Below, piece by piece: positions 2 to 18,462 of a DNA stretch of 64,000 bases; positions within the stretch are counted from its first letter, which is position 1; each line of letters opens with the position of its first letter. The stretch is from IMG/VR virus record IMGVR_UViG_3300047409_000574, positions 62,256-126,255 of that record; one strand, written 5' to 3'. The DNA is from a virus. The notes under the pieces were generated by a model that searched no databases, was not told where the DNA came from, and saw only the letters and a list, made by a program, of their open reading frames with translations. The position numbers and the translations under genes were made by a program.

Positions 2-3000
2 ACGGCGGATGCTGCGCGGGAGAACCACTACAACTTTGTGCGCAAGAACAACGACCAGCGCGGCAGGCCGATGTACGAGGTGCCGACGGCGGAGGATGAG
101 CAGCGGGCGAAGGACGCGCTCGACTGGGTGCGCACCACGCTCGCGCCGAAGCAGAACAAGTCGGAGTTCGAGCACAACATGGCGGCGATGACGAGCGGGT
201 CGCATGTGCCGGAGCGCGGGGAGGGGATCGTCGCCTACGTGCCGGTCGCGCACGCGAAGGCGCTGGAGAAGGAGATCGTGCTCCAGCGCGAGCAGACAGC
301 ACGCGGCACGTCGGAGCATCTCGGCACGGTGAAGGAGCGCTTGAAGCTGCGGCTGACGGTGGAGGCGGTGTTCGAGCGCGAGGGTGACTACGGGGTGACG
401 TACATCACCCGGATGGCCGACCCGGACGGGAACATCGTCAAGTGGTTCGGCTCCTACCCGTTGGAGCAGGGCAAGACCTACGAGGGCATGTGGGGGGTGA
501 AGAAGCACGACGAGTACAAGGGCGGCAAGGAGACGGTCGTGACCCGGCCGACCAAGCTGGAGATGGTTGTCGAGGACACCGGCGAGAAGGGTGACGCGCC
601 GGTGCGCTACGAGGGCGACTTCCTGGAGCGCCGGGCGCAGCGGGATGCGGCTGCTGCCGCCCTGGCGACCGGGGGGCCGGTGCATGCGCCGTCGGAGTTC
701 ATCACGTTGCCGAAGTCGGGCAAGCTTCGCGCGCCCGCGATGGAGGCGCTCGCGGCGCTCGATTCGTTGCTGGTGATTCCGCCGATGCATGGGCCGATTC
801 CGGTGAAGGCGACGGCGGGCAAGAACACGCGGGGTGGCTATGCGCGCAGGCCGGATGCGGATGCTCCGCGCGCGCCGGTTTGGGAGGGGCCGACGGTGCG
901 TATGACGGGCTTCGGCAAGGGCCGCTCGAACCGTCCGGCGAAGCTCGCGTCGGAGATCGCGGTTGGTGACGTGATCGTGTTGGCGGCGGGCTACTACGCG
1001 CCGGTGACGGCGACGAGCCAGGAGGAGCACGAGATCGGGTTCGGGCGTGAGCCGGTGATGAAGGCGCATATCACGATCGACCGGGGCGAGGGGGGCAAGC
1101 CGAACCTCCAGGAACTCACGTACAAGCCGGACGAGTTGATCCCGTTCCAGTGGGCACCGGCCGCGGCGGATGTGCCGGAGCATCCGACGTTGTATCCGAA
1201 GGAGATCAGGGTGTCGGTCTCGGATGACAGGGACACCGACTCGGCGCTGGCAACGCTGATTCACGAGATGGGCCACTACATCGACAACCAGGCGTTCCGT
1301 AACTACCCGCGGATGGCGGGGTTCGCGACCGACCATGCGGGCTTCCGTGTGAGGGGGGATGAGAAGGAACGCCGTGAGGCGGTCGAGCGGATGCGCGCTG
1401 CGGGCCAGAAGGGCGTCGATCTGTTGGAGCTTTACGATGCGGAGGAGACACCGTTGTCGGCGTGGTTGGAGGCGGTGCGGGACAGCCCCGAGGCCGAAGG
1501 GTTGCGCACCGGCGTGTCGTACGCGGAGGCGGCCACGCACAAGTATTTGCTTTCGCCGAAGGAGTTGTGGGCGCGCTCGTTCGCCCAGTGGGTGGCGACC
1601 CGTTCCGACAACCCGGCGCTCAAGGCGTGGCTGGTCTCGTTGCAGAACCAGCCGGACACGCACATCGTGCAGCACAAGCGTTACGACCGGGTGGCGCACG
1701 CGAACGTGCTGGTGCCGGTCGAGGAGAAGCGGCCGAACTATCTGCTGTTGCGCCAGTGGTCGGATGAGAACTTCGTGCCGATCGGCGAGGCGATGGACGT
1801 GCTGTTCGAGCGTCTACACTGGTTGCGTGGCGGAGCCGGGAGTGGACGAGACGGGGACACCGATCCTGTTGCCGGACGGCTCGTTGGAGGCCGATCCGGT
1901 GGAGGAGTTGGTGATCGACATGCTCTGGTCGCCGACGCTCTCGCCGTCGCCGGACTAGGCGAGAAGGGAGGCTCCGGCCTGCCGGACACGGTGTGGTTGG
2001 AGACATCGCCGTCCGATCTCGGGCATGCGCGCATGAAGGATCGGGTGCCGTGGAGCTACGACCCGGCGAGCGGCCGGTTGTTCATCGGCTCGGGCGGTTC
2101 GGATCACACCGAGCTAACGCGGGCGATGCGCGCGCAGGGTCACGAGATGGGCGACGACGAGTGGAACGGCGTGTGGATGATGGACGGCCCGAGCGTGGGG
2201 GTGCATGTGCACTCGAACCTGGGGCCGCCGGACTTCGGCAACCCGCTGGGTCACGATGAGCCGTTGCCGCCGGTGCTGGCGTCGCGGTTGCGCCAGGCGT
2301 TCGGCGGGCCGCTGCACGGGCACGCTGGCGGGGAGAAGGGTGATCCCGGTGTCGCGTCGCTCAAGGGCGACGGGCCGTTGCCGATGGAGAATGGTCTCTA
2401 CTACCGCCTACACACGGTGGGTGCGCCGTTCGGGCCGGAGCATGCGAGCACGGTGCCGCCGATCCCGGAGGAGGTGGCCGCGTCGAGCGAGGTGATGCGT
2501 GGACTCGCGACGCCGAAGCCGGGCTACTCGGCGTTCTGGAATCCGCATCATCTCGTCCAGTACGCGGAGGCGATGAGTTGGGAGCCGACGAAGGTGCGGG
2601 TGCTCGCGTTCCGGGGCACACCGATCGGCGAGGGCAGCGATGGTGAGCCGCGCGTGATGCCGGACTCGACGAAGGTCGAGGCGCGGATGGGCTGGCAGAA
2701 GTTCGTGGATCGCACCGACTGGACGCCGAACGGCTACGGGATGTGGCACGAGCACACGTGGGGCGATGGGCCGGACGGTCGGATCGCCGACGACGGCTAC
2801 CGCACGCTCGCGCAGCTAGGTGACAAGGGCGACATGACGAACCCGGAGTTGCTCGGCGGCGCGTGGACGTTGCCGATCACGTACGACCGCGACGGTCTCC
2901 ACCATGTGGTGCCGATCGACGCGACGATCGCGCCGGACGTGCAGCGTGCGATCGACCGGGGCTTCACTACGGTGGCGTCGTGTTCGGGCTTGAAGGCCGA

Positions 3001-4399
3001 TCATCCCGAAGGGGCGGGCAACCCGCACGCAGGCCGGTCGGGCGACGGCTATCTGGCGTTCCCGTTGGCGGCTCACTCACCGGAGCAGATTGCGGCGATC
3101 GAGCACGCCGCGAAGCAGGCTGGGTTTGCTCATCTCTACGCCGACGTTTACGGCGAGCCTGGGCTGATGGTCTACACGCCAGACATGAAGCTGCGCCAGC
3201 GCGCGTACCGTCAGGCGAACGAGGCGGTTGGGCTGGCCCCGGATGCCGACCCGCCCTCTGGGGCTGCGTTCAACGAGTGGTATGCAGCACGCGTGGCCGC
3301 GTTCAAGAGGCTGGGTGTCGGCCGGGCGACCGACGAGGAGGTCGCACCGGCGTGGCGGGAGTTCTTCGACACGCTGAACGGTGCACGCCAGCCGGTGGAC
3401 TACGCGAGCATCCCGCCGGTGCTCTATCACGCGGCGCGTGACTCGACCGCGAGCGGCGGCGGCGATCCGGTGGTGCATGTCGAGGTCGCCCCGGCGGCGG
3501 CCGAAGCTGGCGCGCTGATCCAGGCGGGACACGAGCGCGCCGGTGTGGTGGAGATCACACGTGACGCGCTCGCGGGGAGCGATCTTATCCGGCTGCCGGA
3601 CGGTTCGATCCAGGTGCGCGGCAACCCGAACTTCGGCGGCGAGAAGGGCGACCCGAGCCTGCCGGAGTCCACACGGGTCGAGCCGACCGACGAACTGCTC
3701 GCGGAGATCGAGAAGCTCCAGGCGAGCGTCGGCGGGCGCGGCAAGCTCGGCAGGCAGGGCGACACGGATGATCTGCTCGGCGAGGTGCTGAGTGACATGC
3801 GTTACGCGCGACGGCTGCCGGAGTATGCGGCGGCGTACAAGTTCTACGAGCGGCGCACACCGGATGGCGGGATCGCCGGGCTGATGGTGCTGGCCGACCC
3901 GCCGCTGAACGTGCCGGAGCACCGGCTGCCTTACGGCATGACGTTGGACAACACGGTTGTGCTCGGGCGGCTGGTGAGTGTGCAGCCGGGCACCGGCACG
4001 ATCATGCTGCGCGACGCGGCCCGCTACGCGGCCGAGCATGGCAAGGGGCTGGTGTTGTGGTCGCTGCCGGGCGCGCGCGAGTTCTACCGCAAGGCGGGCA
4101 TGAGCGAGGAGAAGGACGGCTGGGTTTACAAGGAGTGGTGGACGGCGGAGCAGGTCGCCGACCACACACGTAGGCTGGTCGAGAGCCTTGACGAACCTGC
4201 GGTAGCAACCGCCGCAGGCAGCGCGGACGGGGACAGGGCCGGGGGGTTCAGTCCCGTCCGCGCGCTACTTGAAACGCTCGGGGTGCCGCCGGAGGAGGAG
4301 GAGGAAACACTGGTGAAGCTGCTGCTGCTCGGCGAGGGGCGGGAGCGGTTCATGCGGGAGTGGTGCGGGGAGGCCGGGGTGGACTTCGCCGTTTTGTGA
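2..4399 (+). CDS. Polyvalent multidomain protein, 5'-partial: OB-fold-like, HEXXH zincin metallopeptidase, unknown domain, ART-like, 'TVASCSG' domain, GNAT acetyltransferase
   Basis: The frame of ORF 38..4399 is open from base 2. Motifs: LIHEMGHYID plus ELWARSFAQW (zincin); YYR..GYSAF..DGEP (ART-like); GTGTIML..AREFYRKAGM (GNAT). Domains are separated by G[ED]KG at 581, 1958, 2330, 2819 and 3638. Confidence 0.8.
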   Translation, partial: TADAARENHYNFVRKNNDQRGRPMYEVPTAEDEQRAKDALDWVRTTLAPKQNKSEFEHNMAAMTSGSHVPERGEGIVAYVPVAHAKALEKEIVLQREQTARGTSEHLGTVKERLKLRLTVEAVFEREGDYGVTYITRMADPDGNIVKWFGSYPLEQGKTYEGMWGVKKHDEYKGGKETVVTRPTKLEMVVEDTGEKGDAPVRYEGDFLERRAQRDAAAAALATGGPVHAPSEFITLPKSGKLRAPAMEALAALDSLLVIPPMHGPIPVKATAGKNTRGGYARRPDADAPRAPVWEGPTVRMTGFGKGRSNRPAKLASEIAVGDVIVLAAGYYAPVTATSQEEHEIGFGREPVMKAHITIDRGEGGKPNLQELTYKPDELIPFQWAPAAADVPEHPTLYPKEIRVSVSDDRDTDSALATLIHEMGHYIDNQAFRNYPRMAGFATDHAGFRVRGDEKERREAVERMRAAGQKGVDLLELYDAEETPLSAWLEAVRDSPEAEGLRTGVSYAEAATHKYLLSPKELWARSFAQWVATRSDNPALKAWLVSLQNQPDTHIVQHKRYDRVAHANVLVPVEEKRPNYLLLRQWSDENFVPIGEAMDVLFERLHWLRGGAGSGRDGDTDPVAGRLVGGRSGGGVGDRHALVADALAVAGLGEKGGSGLPDTVWLETSPSDLGHARMKDRVPWSYDPASGRLFIGSGGSDHTELTRAMRAQGHEMGDDEWNGVWMMDGPSVGVHVHSNLGPPDFGNPLGHDEPLPPVLASRLRQAFGGPLHGHAGGEKGDPGVASLKGDGPLPMENGLYYRLHTVGAPFGPEHASTVPPIPEEVAASSEVMRGLATPKPGYSAFWNPHHLVQYAEAMSWEPTKVRVLAFRGTPIGEGSDGEPRVMPDSTKVEARMGWQKFVDRTDWTPNGYGMWHEHTWGDGPDGRIADDGYRTLAQLGDKGDMTNPELLGGAWTLPITYDRDGLHHVVPIDATIAPDVQRAIDRGFTTVASCSGLKADHPEGAGNPHAGRSGDGYLAFPLAAHSPEQIAAIEHAAKQAGFAHLYADVYGEPGLMVYTPDMKLRQRAYRQANEAVGLAPDADPPSGAAFNEWYAARVAAFKRLGVGRATDEEVAPAWREFFDTLNGARQPVDYASIPPVLYHAARDSTASGGGDPVVHVEVAPAAAEAGALIQAGHERAGVVEITRDALAGSDLIRLPDGSIQVRGNPNFGGEKGDPSLPESTRVEPTDELLAEIEKLQASVGGRGKLGRQGDTDDLLGEVLSDMRYARRLPEYAAAYKFYERRTPDGGIAGLMVLADPPLNVPEHRLPYGMTLDNTVVLGRLVSVQPGTGTIMLRDAARYAAEHGKGLVLWSLPGAREFYRKAGMSEEKDGWVYKEWWTAEQVADHTRRLVESLDEPAVATAAGSADGDRAGGFSPVRALLETLGVPPEEEEETLVKLLLLGEGRERFMREWCGEAGVDFAVL
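1827..1958 (+). CDS. Nested out-of-frame 43-aa acidic protein (MAEPGVDETG...SPSPD), candidate immunity protein
   Basis: GTG..TAG ORF with strongly G/C third positions, while the host frame here reads like an off-frame G/R/V-rich linker. TACACT (1815-1820) lies 6 nt before the GTG. The stop overlaps the first base of the GEKG linker codons. Confidence 0.6.
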   Translation: MAEPGVDETGTPILLPDGSLEADPVEELVIDMLWSPTLSPSPD

Positions 4400-13662: not shown

Positions 13663-13704
13663 CGGGGGCTTGTTGGAGTCAGCGCTGATGGCTACGATGG
13701 GGGC

Positions 13705-13860
13705 ATGGCTTCTAGGCTGACAGAGATCACCCAGCAGGTCGCGGAGGAGTGGCGCAAGGAGGGCAAGCTGTTGGTGCCGCCCGACAAGGCGCTTCCCGAT
13801 CCCACGGACGCGTTCTGGGACGAAGTCCAGCGTCGCTACGACGAGCAAGTCGCCGCGTAG
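13705..13860 (+). CDS. 51-aa leaderless protein after the GNAT gene, candidate immunity protein
   Basis: TTGTTG-17 nt-TACGAT lies 6 nt before the ATG; MASRLTEITQQVAEEWRKEG...; high GC3. Confidence 0.6.
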   Translation: MASRLTEITQQVAEEWRKEGKLLVPPDKALPDPTDAFWDEVQRRYDEQVAA

Positions 13861-18213: not shown

Positions 18214-18246
18214 GAACCGCTGCTTGCTTGTCACGGTAAGTAGGGT

Positions 18247-18462
18247 GTGCGCGTGGACTCGACCAAGACCAAGCGCGAAATAGCGACCGACCTCCTGCGT
18301 GATCTGTTTCGGGATCGAACGCGGATCGAGATTGCCGAAGCCGTCAAGCGCGGCGCGGCGCTCGGGGTCAGTCGGCGCACGCTGCTTCGCGCGGGGAGCG
18401 AGCTAGGGGTGCGCGAGGTGCACAACGGGCCGTTCCCGGCGTTCTGGCAACTCGACGGGTGA
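18247..18462 (+). CDS. Small helix-turn-helix-like protein
   Basis: AALGVSRRTLLRA pattern; GTGA overlap with the RNase H gene. Confidence 0.55.
   Translation: MRVDSTKTKREIATDLLRDLFRDRTRIEIAEAVKRGAALGVSRRTLLRAGSELGVREVHNGPFPAFWQLDG

Follow-up and report, generated by a model that had tools for sequence, protein, structure and literature searches.

We analysed a window of 64,000 nucleotides from a viral record of 126 kb. Positions 2–4399 of its plus strand hold the 3' part (1465 of 5278 codons; codon starts at 2 modulo 3) of a phage polyvalent-protein ORF that begins 11.4 kb upstream of the window. Comparison of the whole ORF with Pfam and PHROGs returned a head-protein PHROG (residues 192–350), a 2H phosphoesterase/RNA-ligase-like domain and phrog_2319, together with a weak intein match. 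Phage_Mu_F (Pfam, E ≤ 0.001) had no match in the giant ORF, where the head-protein PHROG is the only hit of this kind. The giant phage product of 5278 residues unites numerous effector domains that are unrelated to one another, with 14 inter-domain linkers of the type G[ED]KG. One of them, GEKGG, is located at positions 1958–1972 (plus strand).

Upstream of this linker lies a zincin-like metallopeptidase module (positions 596–1825, plus strand). It comprises a HEMGH motif, an inserted EF-P/eIF5A-like β-barrel and an LPD1-like helix (THKYLLSPKELWARSF), and ends with the residues LFERLHWL. The module is internal to the giant ORF, which continues for about 860 residues downstream of it. HEMGH is invariant in all six aligned sequences. 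The Pfam model LPD1 scored 21.2 bits on the module (19.3 in another search) against a gathering score of 27, and the module also matches phrog_4529, annotated as minor head protein and DNA pilot. A fold comparison with VIA-align 2 yielded the catalytic domain of anthrax lethal factor (1yqy; Z = 7.8, r.m.s.d. 4.2, 160 aligned residues), PPEP-2 (Z = 6.8, r.m.s.d. 3.6, 144 aligned), PPEP-3 (Z = 6.8) and thermolysin (Z = 5.5), all of them middling values for a zincin match. Residues 114–187 of the module superimpose on domain I of EF-P with Z = 8.8. A Foldseek search of the PDB at E ≤ 0.001 found the inserted β-barrel alone and no zincin. As modeled, the module is an HExxH zincin fold.

The C-terminal border of the module was determined from its homologs and from the predicted structure. 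By hand count, 26 of the listed homologs reach query residues 407–415. For 23 of these the alignment ends at most 4 residues from their own C-terminus, for two within 8 residues of it and for one internally. Query residue 411 corresponds to the codon at 1826–1828, and the AlphaFold2 confidence, about 89 before this point, falls below 40 at residues 411–413. Both observations agree with the original prediction, according to which a nested ORF begins where the HEXXH domain ends.

The stretch between this border and the GEKGG linker can be read in two frames. In the long frame, positions 1826–1957 (plus strand) encode a read-through tail of 44 residues, rich in G, R, D, A and V and predicted to be disordered (AlphaFold2 pLDDT 22–26). 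Its sequence, RGGAGSGRDGDTDPVAGRLVGGRSGGGVGDRHALVADALAVAGL, is indeed the atypical G/R/V/D-rich stretch that had been described before. The second reading, at 1827–1958 on the plus strand, is +1 relative to the long ORF, with codons beginning at positions divisible by 3. It extends from a GTG at 1827 to a TAG at 1956–1958 and encodes 43 residues (VAEPGVDETGTPILLPDGSLEADPVEELVIDMLWSPTLSPSPD), ten of them acidic and none basic. The G of the TAG is at the same time the first base of the GGC codon in GEKGG, so that the expected overlap with the linker is present.

The +1 frame is open from position 1359 anyway, and its openness alone therefore means little; it is coding-like only in its last 43 codons. 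In these, 40 of 43 codons end in G or C, which confirms the near-uniform third positions claimed for the small ORF, compared with 20 of 44 in the long frame. The latter count is far below the fraction of 0.87 across the 5278-codon ORF (binomial P = 7e-11). By hand count, the 44-codon tail contains 8 of the 32 GGA codons and 3 of the 11 CGA codons of the giant ORF. The mean log2 relative codon frequency of the alternative frame is +1.02, the top value of all 42-codon windows in the +1 frame of the giant ORF and higher than 85% of its in-frame windows. Over the same segment the long frame scores −0.65, a typical value for off-frame reading (mean −0.56).

A maximum-scoring-segment test of the alternative against the main coding frame gave 64 bits for main codons 1826–1957; no other 134-codon block of the giant ORF exceeded 14.3 bits. 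The boundaries of the frame switch coincide to the base with the GTG at 1827 and the TAG at 1958. A scan of 84 coding-like ORFs in the 126-kb record identified this segment as the sole frame-switch region on the plus strand located in the interior of an ORF. All remaining plus-strand regions start at the first codon of their own stop-to-stop ORF, and three weak regions were observed for the minus-strand ORFs. A +1-frame codon signal with edges exactly at a start and a stop codon is what a separate nested coding segment, as originally proposed, should look like.

No sequence relative was found in a protein search with the 43-residue peptide as query, Pfam and PHROGs contained nothing for it, and neither of the two readings of the segment had an internal paralogue by tblastn against its own genome. 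We also considered an internal repeat of another linker. The I-x-LPDGS pattern shared with positions 3590–3610 covers only 6 of 9 residues (E = 4.4), and this candidate was discarded.

A −10-like hexamer of the TANNNT type, TACACT, is located at 1815–1820 (plus strand), 6 nt before the GTG as stated in the original prediction. The same geometry, TANNNT-N6-RTG, recurs at two intergenic gene starts (13705 and 18253). Within the window there are 6 matches versus 7.6 expected in shuffles, which is no enrichment. The TA of the hexamer stems from a CTA leucine codon of the long frame, a codon that is rare in the giant ORF (10 of 398 leucine codons). Two of these ten CTA codons occur here, one at 1814, providing the TA of the hexamer, and one at 1955, providing the nested TAG. 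We found neither a sigma-70-type promoter with a −35 element for the nested ORF nor a Shine-Dalgarno sequence before its GTG. The nested gene would be transcribed from TACACT as a −10 hexamer, yielding a leaderless mRNA that begins at the GTG. Since the gene can no longer be coupled to a stop codon at this position, leaderless transcription from TACACT is probable.

In order to examine a possible contact between the two products, we modeled the 43-residue peptide together with the peptidase module. The complex reached an ipSAE of 0.69 (0.69, 0.63 and 0.72 in the individual runs), compared with 0.00 for the best of three controls. This value was attained by 58 of 80 solved complexes and by 2 of 110 mismatched pairs, counts that hold only roughly here because our own alignment was used. 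The runs share at least 57% of their contacts, and the pLDDT of the partner is at least 54, which is modest. In the modeled interface, residues 241–277 and 291–322 of the peptidase face residues 24–35 of the peptide. The interface adjoins the invariant residues H247, Y317, S320, P321 and E323, on the conserved face of the protease. The complex prediction suggested earlier as a check is thus in favor of binding at the level of the model.

A metagenome scan yielded only 11 distant loci, with 28–32% identity. Where the peptidase is C-terminal in these loci, an ORF of 42–58 residues starts on or just before its stop codon in all 10 evaluable cases (L003–L012, which collapse to about four sequence types), with an RTGA overlap at the small-ORF start in nine of them. 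The small ORFs are acidic in all types except L010, with 12 acidic and 1 basic residues in L012, 10 and 3 in L009, and 9–12 and 4–5 in the gut type. The small ORF of L012 is coding-like (GC1/2/3 = 0.76/0.43/0.86), and the proteins of L006 and L012 carry Phage_Mu_F (Pfam). The distant small ORFs use the other overlapping frame (RTGA, +2), whereas the nested ORF is in +1, and Pfam and PHROGs gave no match for any of them. A profile of the distant small ORFs was searched against the 2401 six-frame ORFs of the genome. The nested peptide was outside the best 15, and the best E-value, 1.2, belonged to another ORF. An alignment of eight sequences shows 25–31% identity and a loose PD(G/K)-x-hE-x-(E/D)P pattern, which we do not count as homology. 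The expectation that the same ORF would be found downstream of C-terminal versions of the peptidase therefore holds for position, with an analogue in 10 of 10 loci, but not for sequence, as no homology was detected by the profile.

We consider these results to be best explained by a small gene that was retained and is separately expressed, with a product predicted to bind the protease domain, and we lean towards this reading with slight rather than firm preference. The reading under selection would be the nested frame, and the polyprotein frame would merely stay open across it as a disordered, G/R/D-rich spacer; for this explanation as a whole our preference is equally slight. Judged from the complex model, the 43-residue acidic protein probably serves the adjacent protease as a small partner or as an inhibitor, encoded as a gene within a gene.

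The main alternative starts from the long frame. It assumes that only this frame is translated and that the G/R/D-rich tail is a conserved disordered spacer following the peptidase. The composition of the spacer would then lead to G/C-rich first positions, a cluster of rare A/T-ending codons (serving, for example, to slow the ribosome) would lower GC3, and the +1 ORF, the GTG, the hexamer and the modeled binding would all be coincidences. Four homologs from other records (53, 51, 48 and 44% identity) indeed have a similar G/R/D-rich tail in the long frame, so that such tails are present in all five polyvalent homologs. The five tails contain few residues with codons starting in A or T (26 of 225, versus 0.29 in the rest of the proteins) and no lysine, as expected for a Gly/Arg/Asp/Ala-rich linker. 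This similarity could mean that the long-frame peptide is functional. The tails also bear on age: since homologs at 44–53% identity share the same kind of tail, the arrangement is old, and since the long-frame third positions have still not drifted to G/C, we argue that they are constrained.

We attempted to distinguish the two frames by a codon-position proxy based on the differences among the homologs. For the whole tail, 110 protein differences were assigned to second and 82 to first positions (14 further ones were ambiguous), compared with 496 and 410 in the domain. In the first half of the tail, changes in only the first position (0.23) exceed those in only the second (0.17), the values for the domain being 0.13 and 0.15. 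The proxy is a protein-level measure and leans towards the nested frame in the first half of the tail alone; overall it does not clearly favor this frame, which agrees with a translated spacer, as do the +1 frame being open from 1359 regardless and the lack of a detected homolog of the peptide.

Searches for the DNA of close homologs gave no relative in GenBank phages (megablast, tblastn), plasmids (tblastn), IMG/VR (protein, alignment and degenerate LPD1 pattern) or GTDB genomes (alignment), and the DNA encoding the homologs P0004–P0007 was in none of the collections searched. The six closest proteins are each a singleton cluster. A 376-residue query revealed no longer proteins, a 127-residue query centered on the tail had no protein match, and the ESM Atlas no usable one. 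One candidate from a pattern scan of genome contigs (L014) was discarded, since its protein is unrelated and its agreement in 12 of 15 residues is due to chance.

Several observations speak against a spacer that is read in the long frame only. No further linker or low-complexity stretch among the 5278 codons of the ORF has this pattern, and the edges of the signal lie within one base of the +1 start and stop. The +1 score exceeds that of 85% of the in-frame windows, which a choice of rare codons alone need not produce. In addition, the complex model scores far above its best control (0.69 versus 0.00), and the positional analogue in the distant relatives is a separate small gene. On balance we regard the spacer explanation as rather improbable.

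A different possibility is programmed +1 (or −2) frameshifting near 1811–1826, by which some ribosomes would add the 43-residue acidic tail in cis. The truncated polyprotein would stop at the TAG, and the tail would fold back on the protease. The +1 signal begins right after a run of rare codons, CGT CTA CAC TGG TTG CGT, the modeled binding of peptide and domain suits a tail in cis equally well, and the RNA at 1800–1990 folds better than shuffled sequences (z about −3). Inspection of positions 1805–1830, however, revealed no slippery P-site motif for +1 re-pairing. Frameshifting would need neither a GTG at the boundary nor a TANNNT hexamer at leaderless distance from it, and in the distant relatives there is a separate small gene instead of a fused tail. 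We therefore judge this mechanism to be unlikely.

The stability of the RNA could also reflect an RNA or DNA structural element that constrains the nucleotides independently of both frames. The minimum free energy of the 1800–1990 segment is −97.7 kcal/mol, compared with −83.9 ± 4.5 for shuffles (z = −3.06; 3 of 200 shuffles as good), which is the second-best rank in a comparison with 48 further windows of 191 nt from the giant ORF (mean z = −0.17, standard deviation 1.12, minimum −3.71). Against this, another window of the giant ORF folds better, Rfam gave no match at E ≤ 1, and a structural element leaves unexplained why a three-base periodicity matches the native codon usage and runs from a start to a stop codon. 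Such an element appears very improbable to us as the cause of the signal.

At first sight the local frame switch resembles a pair of compensating frameshifts, introduced by sequencing errors or by recent mutation, which scrambled a linker once read in the other frame, but we give this explanation hardly any credence, as a second assembly, which may stem from the same sample, is identical at a depth of 16, the contig of a relative obtained in another study is gapless across the left boundary, four homologs at 44–53% identity have the long-frame tail rather than the nested peptide, and the stop of the nested frame falls exactly at the right boundary. The second assembly is a 77-kb Logan contig (run X1) that matches positions 1200–2600 with 0 differences and 0 gaps; it may derive from the source sample. 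A sequencing or assembly frameshift, the refuting explanation named in the original prediction, is excluded by this contig together with the long-frame tails of the four homologs, and the age of the arrangement in these homologs contradicts a recent compensated double frameshift.

The relative from another sample and study (X2) is a contig of 151 nt that covers positions 1753–1903 with 6 differences and no gaps (96% identity). Its variants provide one informative site each. At 1869, T>C is silent in the nested frame (TTG>CTG) and replaces V by A in the long frame. At 1813, before the GTG, T>A is silent in the long frame, and 1819 C>A turns TACACT into TACAAT.

For the favored reading, that of a retained nested gene, we propose the following as the most likely course of events. 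In the ancestor, the peptidase may have been located at the C-terminus of a head-associated MuF-type protein, and the gene of a small partner would have overlapped its stop codon, as in the distant relatives. Upon loss of this stop, the long ORF would have read through the small gene into the downstream domains. The small gene would have survived, filling the stretch between the end of the zincin-like domain and the next GEKG linker. Capture in the middle of the polyprotein, as originally proposed, is one possible history, and stop loss with read-through is another. According to the model, the acidic peptide would bind the conserved face of the peptidase via its PVEELVIDMLWS segment and could act there as an inhibitor, an immunity factor or a holder, keeping the protease quiet in the phage-producing cell.

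In Rz/Rz1 of lambdoid phages, the smaller gene is contained entirely in the +1 frame of the larger one, and both are expressed as proteins. Rz1 is translated from a ribosome-binding site of its own, and the two proteins are structural partners in lysis. The nested ORF shares this position, entirely within a larger phage gene and in its +1 frame. Unlike in Rz/Rz1, the outer frame here resembles a passive spacer produced by read-through, and the inner product is predicted to bind to the domain whose coding sequence immediately precedes it. Small protein inhibitors encoded beside zinc metalloproteases, such as those of the serralysin family, occupy the active-site region of the enzyme and protect the producer. 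They are larger, folded proteins from separate, non-overlapping genes, and the likeness to the nested peptide does not imply homology.

According to Jamet et al. (2017, PMC5576092), 89.4% of 191 MuF toxin genes are followed by small ORFs, versus 25.5% of 952 short MuF genes, and metallopeptidases account for 20% of the 191 toxin domains. These toxins (PMC5576092) likewise combine a head-associated phage protein, a variable effector domain and a small ORF immediately after it. The distant loci found here resemble them in having a Phage_Mu_F protein, a C-terminal peptidase and a 42–58-residue ORF on the stop. In contrast to the MuF toxins, the peptidase of our locus is internal to a 5278-residue polyprotein instead of C-terminal, and the small ORF is contained in the long ORF, out of frame with it, instead of following it downstream. 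For this peptidase family, toxicity and protection are putative.

The polyvalent proteins treated by Iyer et al. (2017, PMC5512222) share with the giant ORF the size and multidomain organization of a phage protein, a 2H phosphoesterase, an LPD1-like segment and a lethal-factor-like HExxH zincin. Their zincin-like MPTases are proposed there to process the polyprotein. Because polyvalent zincins are thought to have this function (PMC5512222), a protease with an inhibitor or partner fits our data at least as well as the toxin with immunity gene of the original prediction. The word 'overlapping' has 0 occurrences in the main text of PMC5512222, and the part of the article available to us contains no mention that we found of a nested partner gene or a trans-acting inhibitor.

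Tentatively, and without considering it likely, we also put forward a more specific function, in which an out-of-frame, leaderless acidic peptide inhibits the adjacent processing protease and thereby times the cleavage of an injected polyprotein. The nested inhibitor would be common to a lineage of giant polyvalent proteins with at least five members, and the outer frame would have been kept open over the inhibitor gene through divergence to about 45% identity. In the producing cell, free peptide would silence the protease, and the polyprotein would be packaged whole. As the peptide would not be packaged, the protease would be released after injection into a new host. It could then cut the polyprotein at the G[ED]KG linkers into active effectors.

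Gene callers never report 43-codon ORFs inside a 5278-codon ORF, and partner or inhibitor genes of this kind would therefore be invisible in every annotated phage genome. The codon-phase scan used here would reveal further cases in any high-GC phage. If the favored reading is correct, the locus would be a clean natural overlap in which one frame is plainly selected and the other is a passive spacer. It would then offer a testable handle on when and how the zincin domains of polyvalent proteins switch on, and it would imply that a toxin/immunity-like or protease/inhibitor cassette can outlive fusion into a polyprotein as a gene within a gene.

Between positions 1826 and 1957 of the window, the three-base periodicity of a 5278-codon ORF switches to another frame. 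Codons of the long frame start at positions equal to 2 modulo 3; the +1 frame relative to it holds a nested ORF of 43 codons from GTG 1827 to TAG 1956–1958. In line with the original prediction, its third positions are nearly uniformly G/C (40 of 43 codons), compared with 20 of 44 codons in the long frame (P = 7e-11 at p = 0.87). Long-frame GC3 within this stretch is 0.37–0.50 in 30-codon windows versus 0.87 overall, and first positions reach at least 0.9. When scored with the codon usage of the giant ORF itself, the nested frame reaches +1.02, the top value among +1-frame windows and higher than 85% of the in-frame ones; the long frame yields −0.65 over the same stretch, like ordinary off-frame sequence. 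A maximum-scoring-segment test gave 64 bits for the main codons 1826..1957 and at most 14.3 bits for the other 134-codon blocks of the giant ORF. The segment statistics therefore single out GTG 1827 and TAG 1956–1958 to within one base. Among 84 coding-like ORFs scanned in the whole record, this is the only internal frame-switch region on the + strand. Each of the others on that strand starts with the first codon of its stop-to-stop ORF, ahead of the true gene start, and minus-strand ORFs contain three weak ones. By hand count of the codon list, the rarest long-frame codons in the tail (the long-frame reading of 1826–1957) include 8 of the 32 GGA and 3 of the 11 CGA codons of the giant ORF. 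Of its ten CTA codons, the one at 1814 contributes the TA to the upstream hexamer and the one at 1955 gives rise to the nested stop codon, TAG. The frame switch is confirmed, far beyond chance.

The 126,255-bp record (67% G+C, estimated completeness 91%) has the window as its second half. The giant ORF begins 11.4 kb before the window, has its final 1465 codons inside it and is a phage polyvalent protein by its make-up. Matches comprise a head-protein PHROG near the N-terminus, a 2H phosphoesterase/RNA-ligase-like domain (Pfam/PHROGs) and phrog_2319 (PHROGs). A weak Pfam intein-splicing match (24.3 bits, cut-off 35.8) covers residues 211–470 in the head-protein part (L002 5196–5975); by eye, an insertion resembling an intein is seen at the equivalent position in the N-terminal part of the close homolog P0004. 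Every 2-kb bin of the window has a positive GC skew, and 75 of the 84 coding-like ORFs in the full record lie on the + strand. Fourteen G[ED]KG motifs, in the form G[ED]KG(D/G), lie at domain boundaries of the giant ORF (window 581, 1958, 2330, 2819 and 3638, and nine upstream, genome 53600–61432), where shuffles expect 0.31 (maximum 3 in 2000). Short linker motifs seemingly differ in the homologs: K[GA]DPG or KGD[EP]PG in P0005 and P0006, VYPEQ in P0007, with 2–3 copies each. Such motifs may mark sites, specific to each lineage, at which the zincin domain cleaves. The G[ED]KG motif DNA (GAGAAGGG) is Shine-Dalgarno-like, and a GTG, ATG or CTG often comes only a few codons later, so that internal initiation is another possibility.

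The peptidase module (window 596–1825, + strand) contains a HEMGH motif, invariant in the alignment, and an LPD1-like helix below the Pfam cut-off (21.2 versus 27 bits). Its AlphaFold2 model is confident over residues 30–411. A VIA-align 2 superposition with the catalytic domain of anthrax lethal factor resulted in a Z value of 7.8 and an rmsd of 4.2 (160 aligned), with PPEP-2 and PPEP-3 at 6.8 and thermolysin at 5.5, all middling values. Ahead of the HExxH helix, the N-terminal half of the module contains an inserted SH3-like β-barrel (module residues 114–187, window ~935–1156) similar to domain I of EF-P/eIF5A (Z 8.8, rmsd 2.3, 66 aligned); a Foldseek search matched only this barrel, with no zincin at E ≤ 0.001. 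These fold matches are consistent with the zincin-like MPTase described for polyvalent proteins, which the accessible part of Iyer et al. (PMC5512222) links to lethal factor and proposes as a processing protease.

An exhaustive protein search returned 353 proteins at E ≤ 0.001. Among the matches listed, 26 reach query residues 407–415; by hand count, their own C-terminus is at most 4 residues away in 23 and at most 8 in two, and one is internal. Since codon 1826–1828 corresponds to query residue 411, the nested GTG coincides exactly with the point at which free-standing copies of the domain end, and the claim that the ORF starts as the HEXXH domain ends is borne out. P0009, the closest protein ending at this point, has the terminus LFERLGWRKWSS.

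A sequencing frameshift, which the original prediction had named as another source of the pattern, is ruled out. A 77-kb Logan contig (run X1, possibly from the record's source sample) covers 1200–2600 at depth 16 with no differences and no gaps, and a 151-nt contig from another sample and study (run X2) spans 1753–1903 with six differences and no gap. The long-frame tail also directly follows ...L-G-W in four homologs from other records (for example GSGRDRNADSDAGRFAGARPGGG and GDRRDRDADLDAGGGVGAGRDRG), which are 53, 51, 48 and 44% identical to the module in the alignment. Because they carry the same odd tail at this distance, the arrangement is old, which rules out a recent compensated double frameshift as well as a sequencing error. 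Constraint by the nested frame would answer why the long-frame third positions of an old arrangement have not drifted to G/C. The X2 difference at 1869, the one listed inside the nested ORF, is silent in the nested frame and gives V>A when read in the long frame; the one at 1813, ahead of the GTG, is silent in the long frame. Each is one informative site.

Some observations cut the other way. With the protein tails as a proxy, second-position differences exceed first-position differences over the whole tail (110 versus 82, with 14 ambiguous), the domain behaves likewise (496 versus 410), and a lean towards nested-frame constraint is seen in the first half of the tail only. The tails of all five proteins lack lysine and are depleted in residues with A- or T-starting codons (26 of 225 versus 0.29; P = 8e-10). 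Such depletion would be expected from GC3-rich coding DNA read off-frame and, equally, from a Gly/Arg/Asp-rich linker. The RNA of 1800–1990 folds more stably than dinucleotide shuffles (−97.7 kcal/mol, z −3.06) and ranks second in a comparison with 48 further 191-nt windows from the giant ORF; an Rfam search with it gave no match.

The hexamer TACACT (1815–1820) is separated by 6 nt from the nested GTG. This geometry had been likened to that of other leaderless genes, correctly: it is shared by two clear intergenic gene starts, both on the + strand and candidate leaderless starts without Shine-Dalgarno sequence, at 13693–13707 (TACGAT, 6 nt, ATG 13705) and 18241–18255 (TAGGGT, 6 nt, GTG 18253). 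TANNNT is scarce on the + strand (149 in 126 kb). By itself the motif is weak evidence, because the six TANNNT-N6-RTG sites in the window, all on the + strand, are no excess over the 7.6 in shuffles and two are off-frame noise. Upstream of the nested ORF, a promoter search found no −35 element and inspection no Shine-Dalgarno sequence. The X2 relative has TACAAT as its hexamer.

The DNA comparison covered distant relatives at 28–32% identity. These are MuF-type minor head proteins with a C-terminal peptidase domain (Phage_Mu_F, phrog_4529, phrog_220). An ORF of 42–58 aa starts on or before the stop codon in all ten evaluable loci, with an RTGA overlap in nine; the count leaves out the cut-off locus L013, includes the duplicates L004/L005 and L006/L007 and represents about four sequence types. 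The expectation of the same ORF behind C-terminal peptidases thus holds for a small ORF in this position; its sequence homology to the nested peptide was not established by alignment and profile search. The nested peptide has 10 acidic and 0 basic residues, and three of the types share this strongly acidic character; the L010 ORF is not acidic, and that of L012 has coding-like GC1/2/3. Loci L003–L008 and L011 encode a conserved acidic family of 54–55 aa (...YPD.IE.EPGKFA.FDP..GEW.Y.APDG..V.ISL) with no match in Pfam or PHROG, whose start always lies on the stop codon of the MuF-zincin gene; one contig is named as human gut metagenome. A protein search, a profile of the distant small ORFs and the ESM Atlas yielded no relatives of the 43-aa peptide. 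According to the accessible part of Jamet et al. (PMC5576092), small ORFs follow 89.4% of 191 MuF toxin genes versus 25.5% of 952 short MuF genes, and metallopeptidases make up 20% of MuF toxin domains.

Complex prediction, proposed earlier as a check, gave a positive result. Modeled together with the 43-aa peptide, module residues 30–411 (alignment A1) gave a score of 0.69 (runs 0.69, 0.63 and 0.72), compared with 0.00 for the best of three controls. Of 80 solved complexes, 58 attain this mark, as do 2 of 110 mismatched pairs; these counts are only rough here as our own alignment was used. At least 57% of the contacts agree between runs, and the partner pLDDT is at least 54. Peptide residues 24–35 (PVEELVIDMLWS) are placed against module residues 241–277 and 291–322. 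The modeled interface surrounds the invariant residues H247, Y317, S320, P321 and E323 and would correspond to the catalytic cleft. The prediction supports binding of the peptide to the module. The long-frame tail was modeled as disordered (pLDDT 22–26).

Phages are already known to carry nested genes, and small partner genes are known downstream of MuF effector domains. For a partner gene nested in a polyvalent-protein linker we found no relevant title in print, and the word 'overlapping' is absent from the main text of PMC5512222, as far as accessible; this placement is the part without precedent found in print. The data establish a coding signature with exact boundaries, the age of the arrangement, and a position that coincides both with domain ends and with the separate small genes of distant relatives. 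Most economically, a small gene survived the loss of the peptidase gene's stop codon, after which the ORF would have run on into the downstream domains. The nested ORF would be leaderlessly transcribed and translated, and its product, judging from the modeled complex, most likely binds the protease domain from the immediately preceding segment, where it may have an inhibitor or immunity role.
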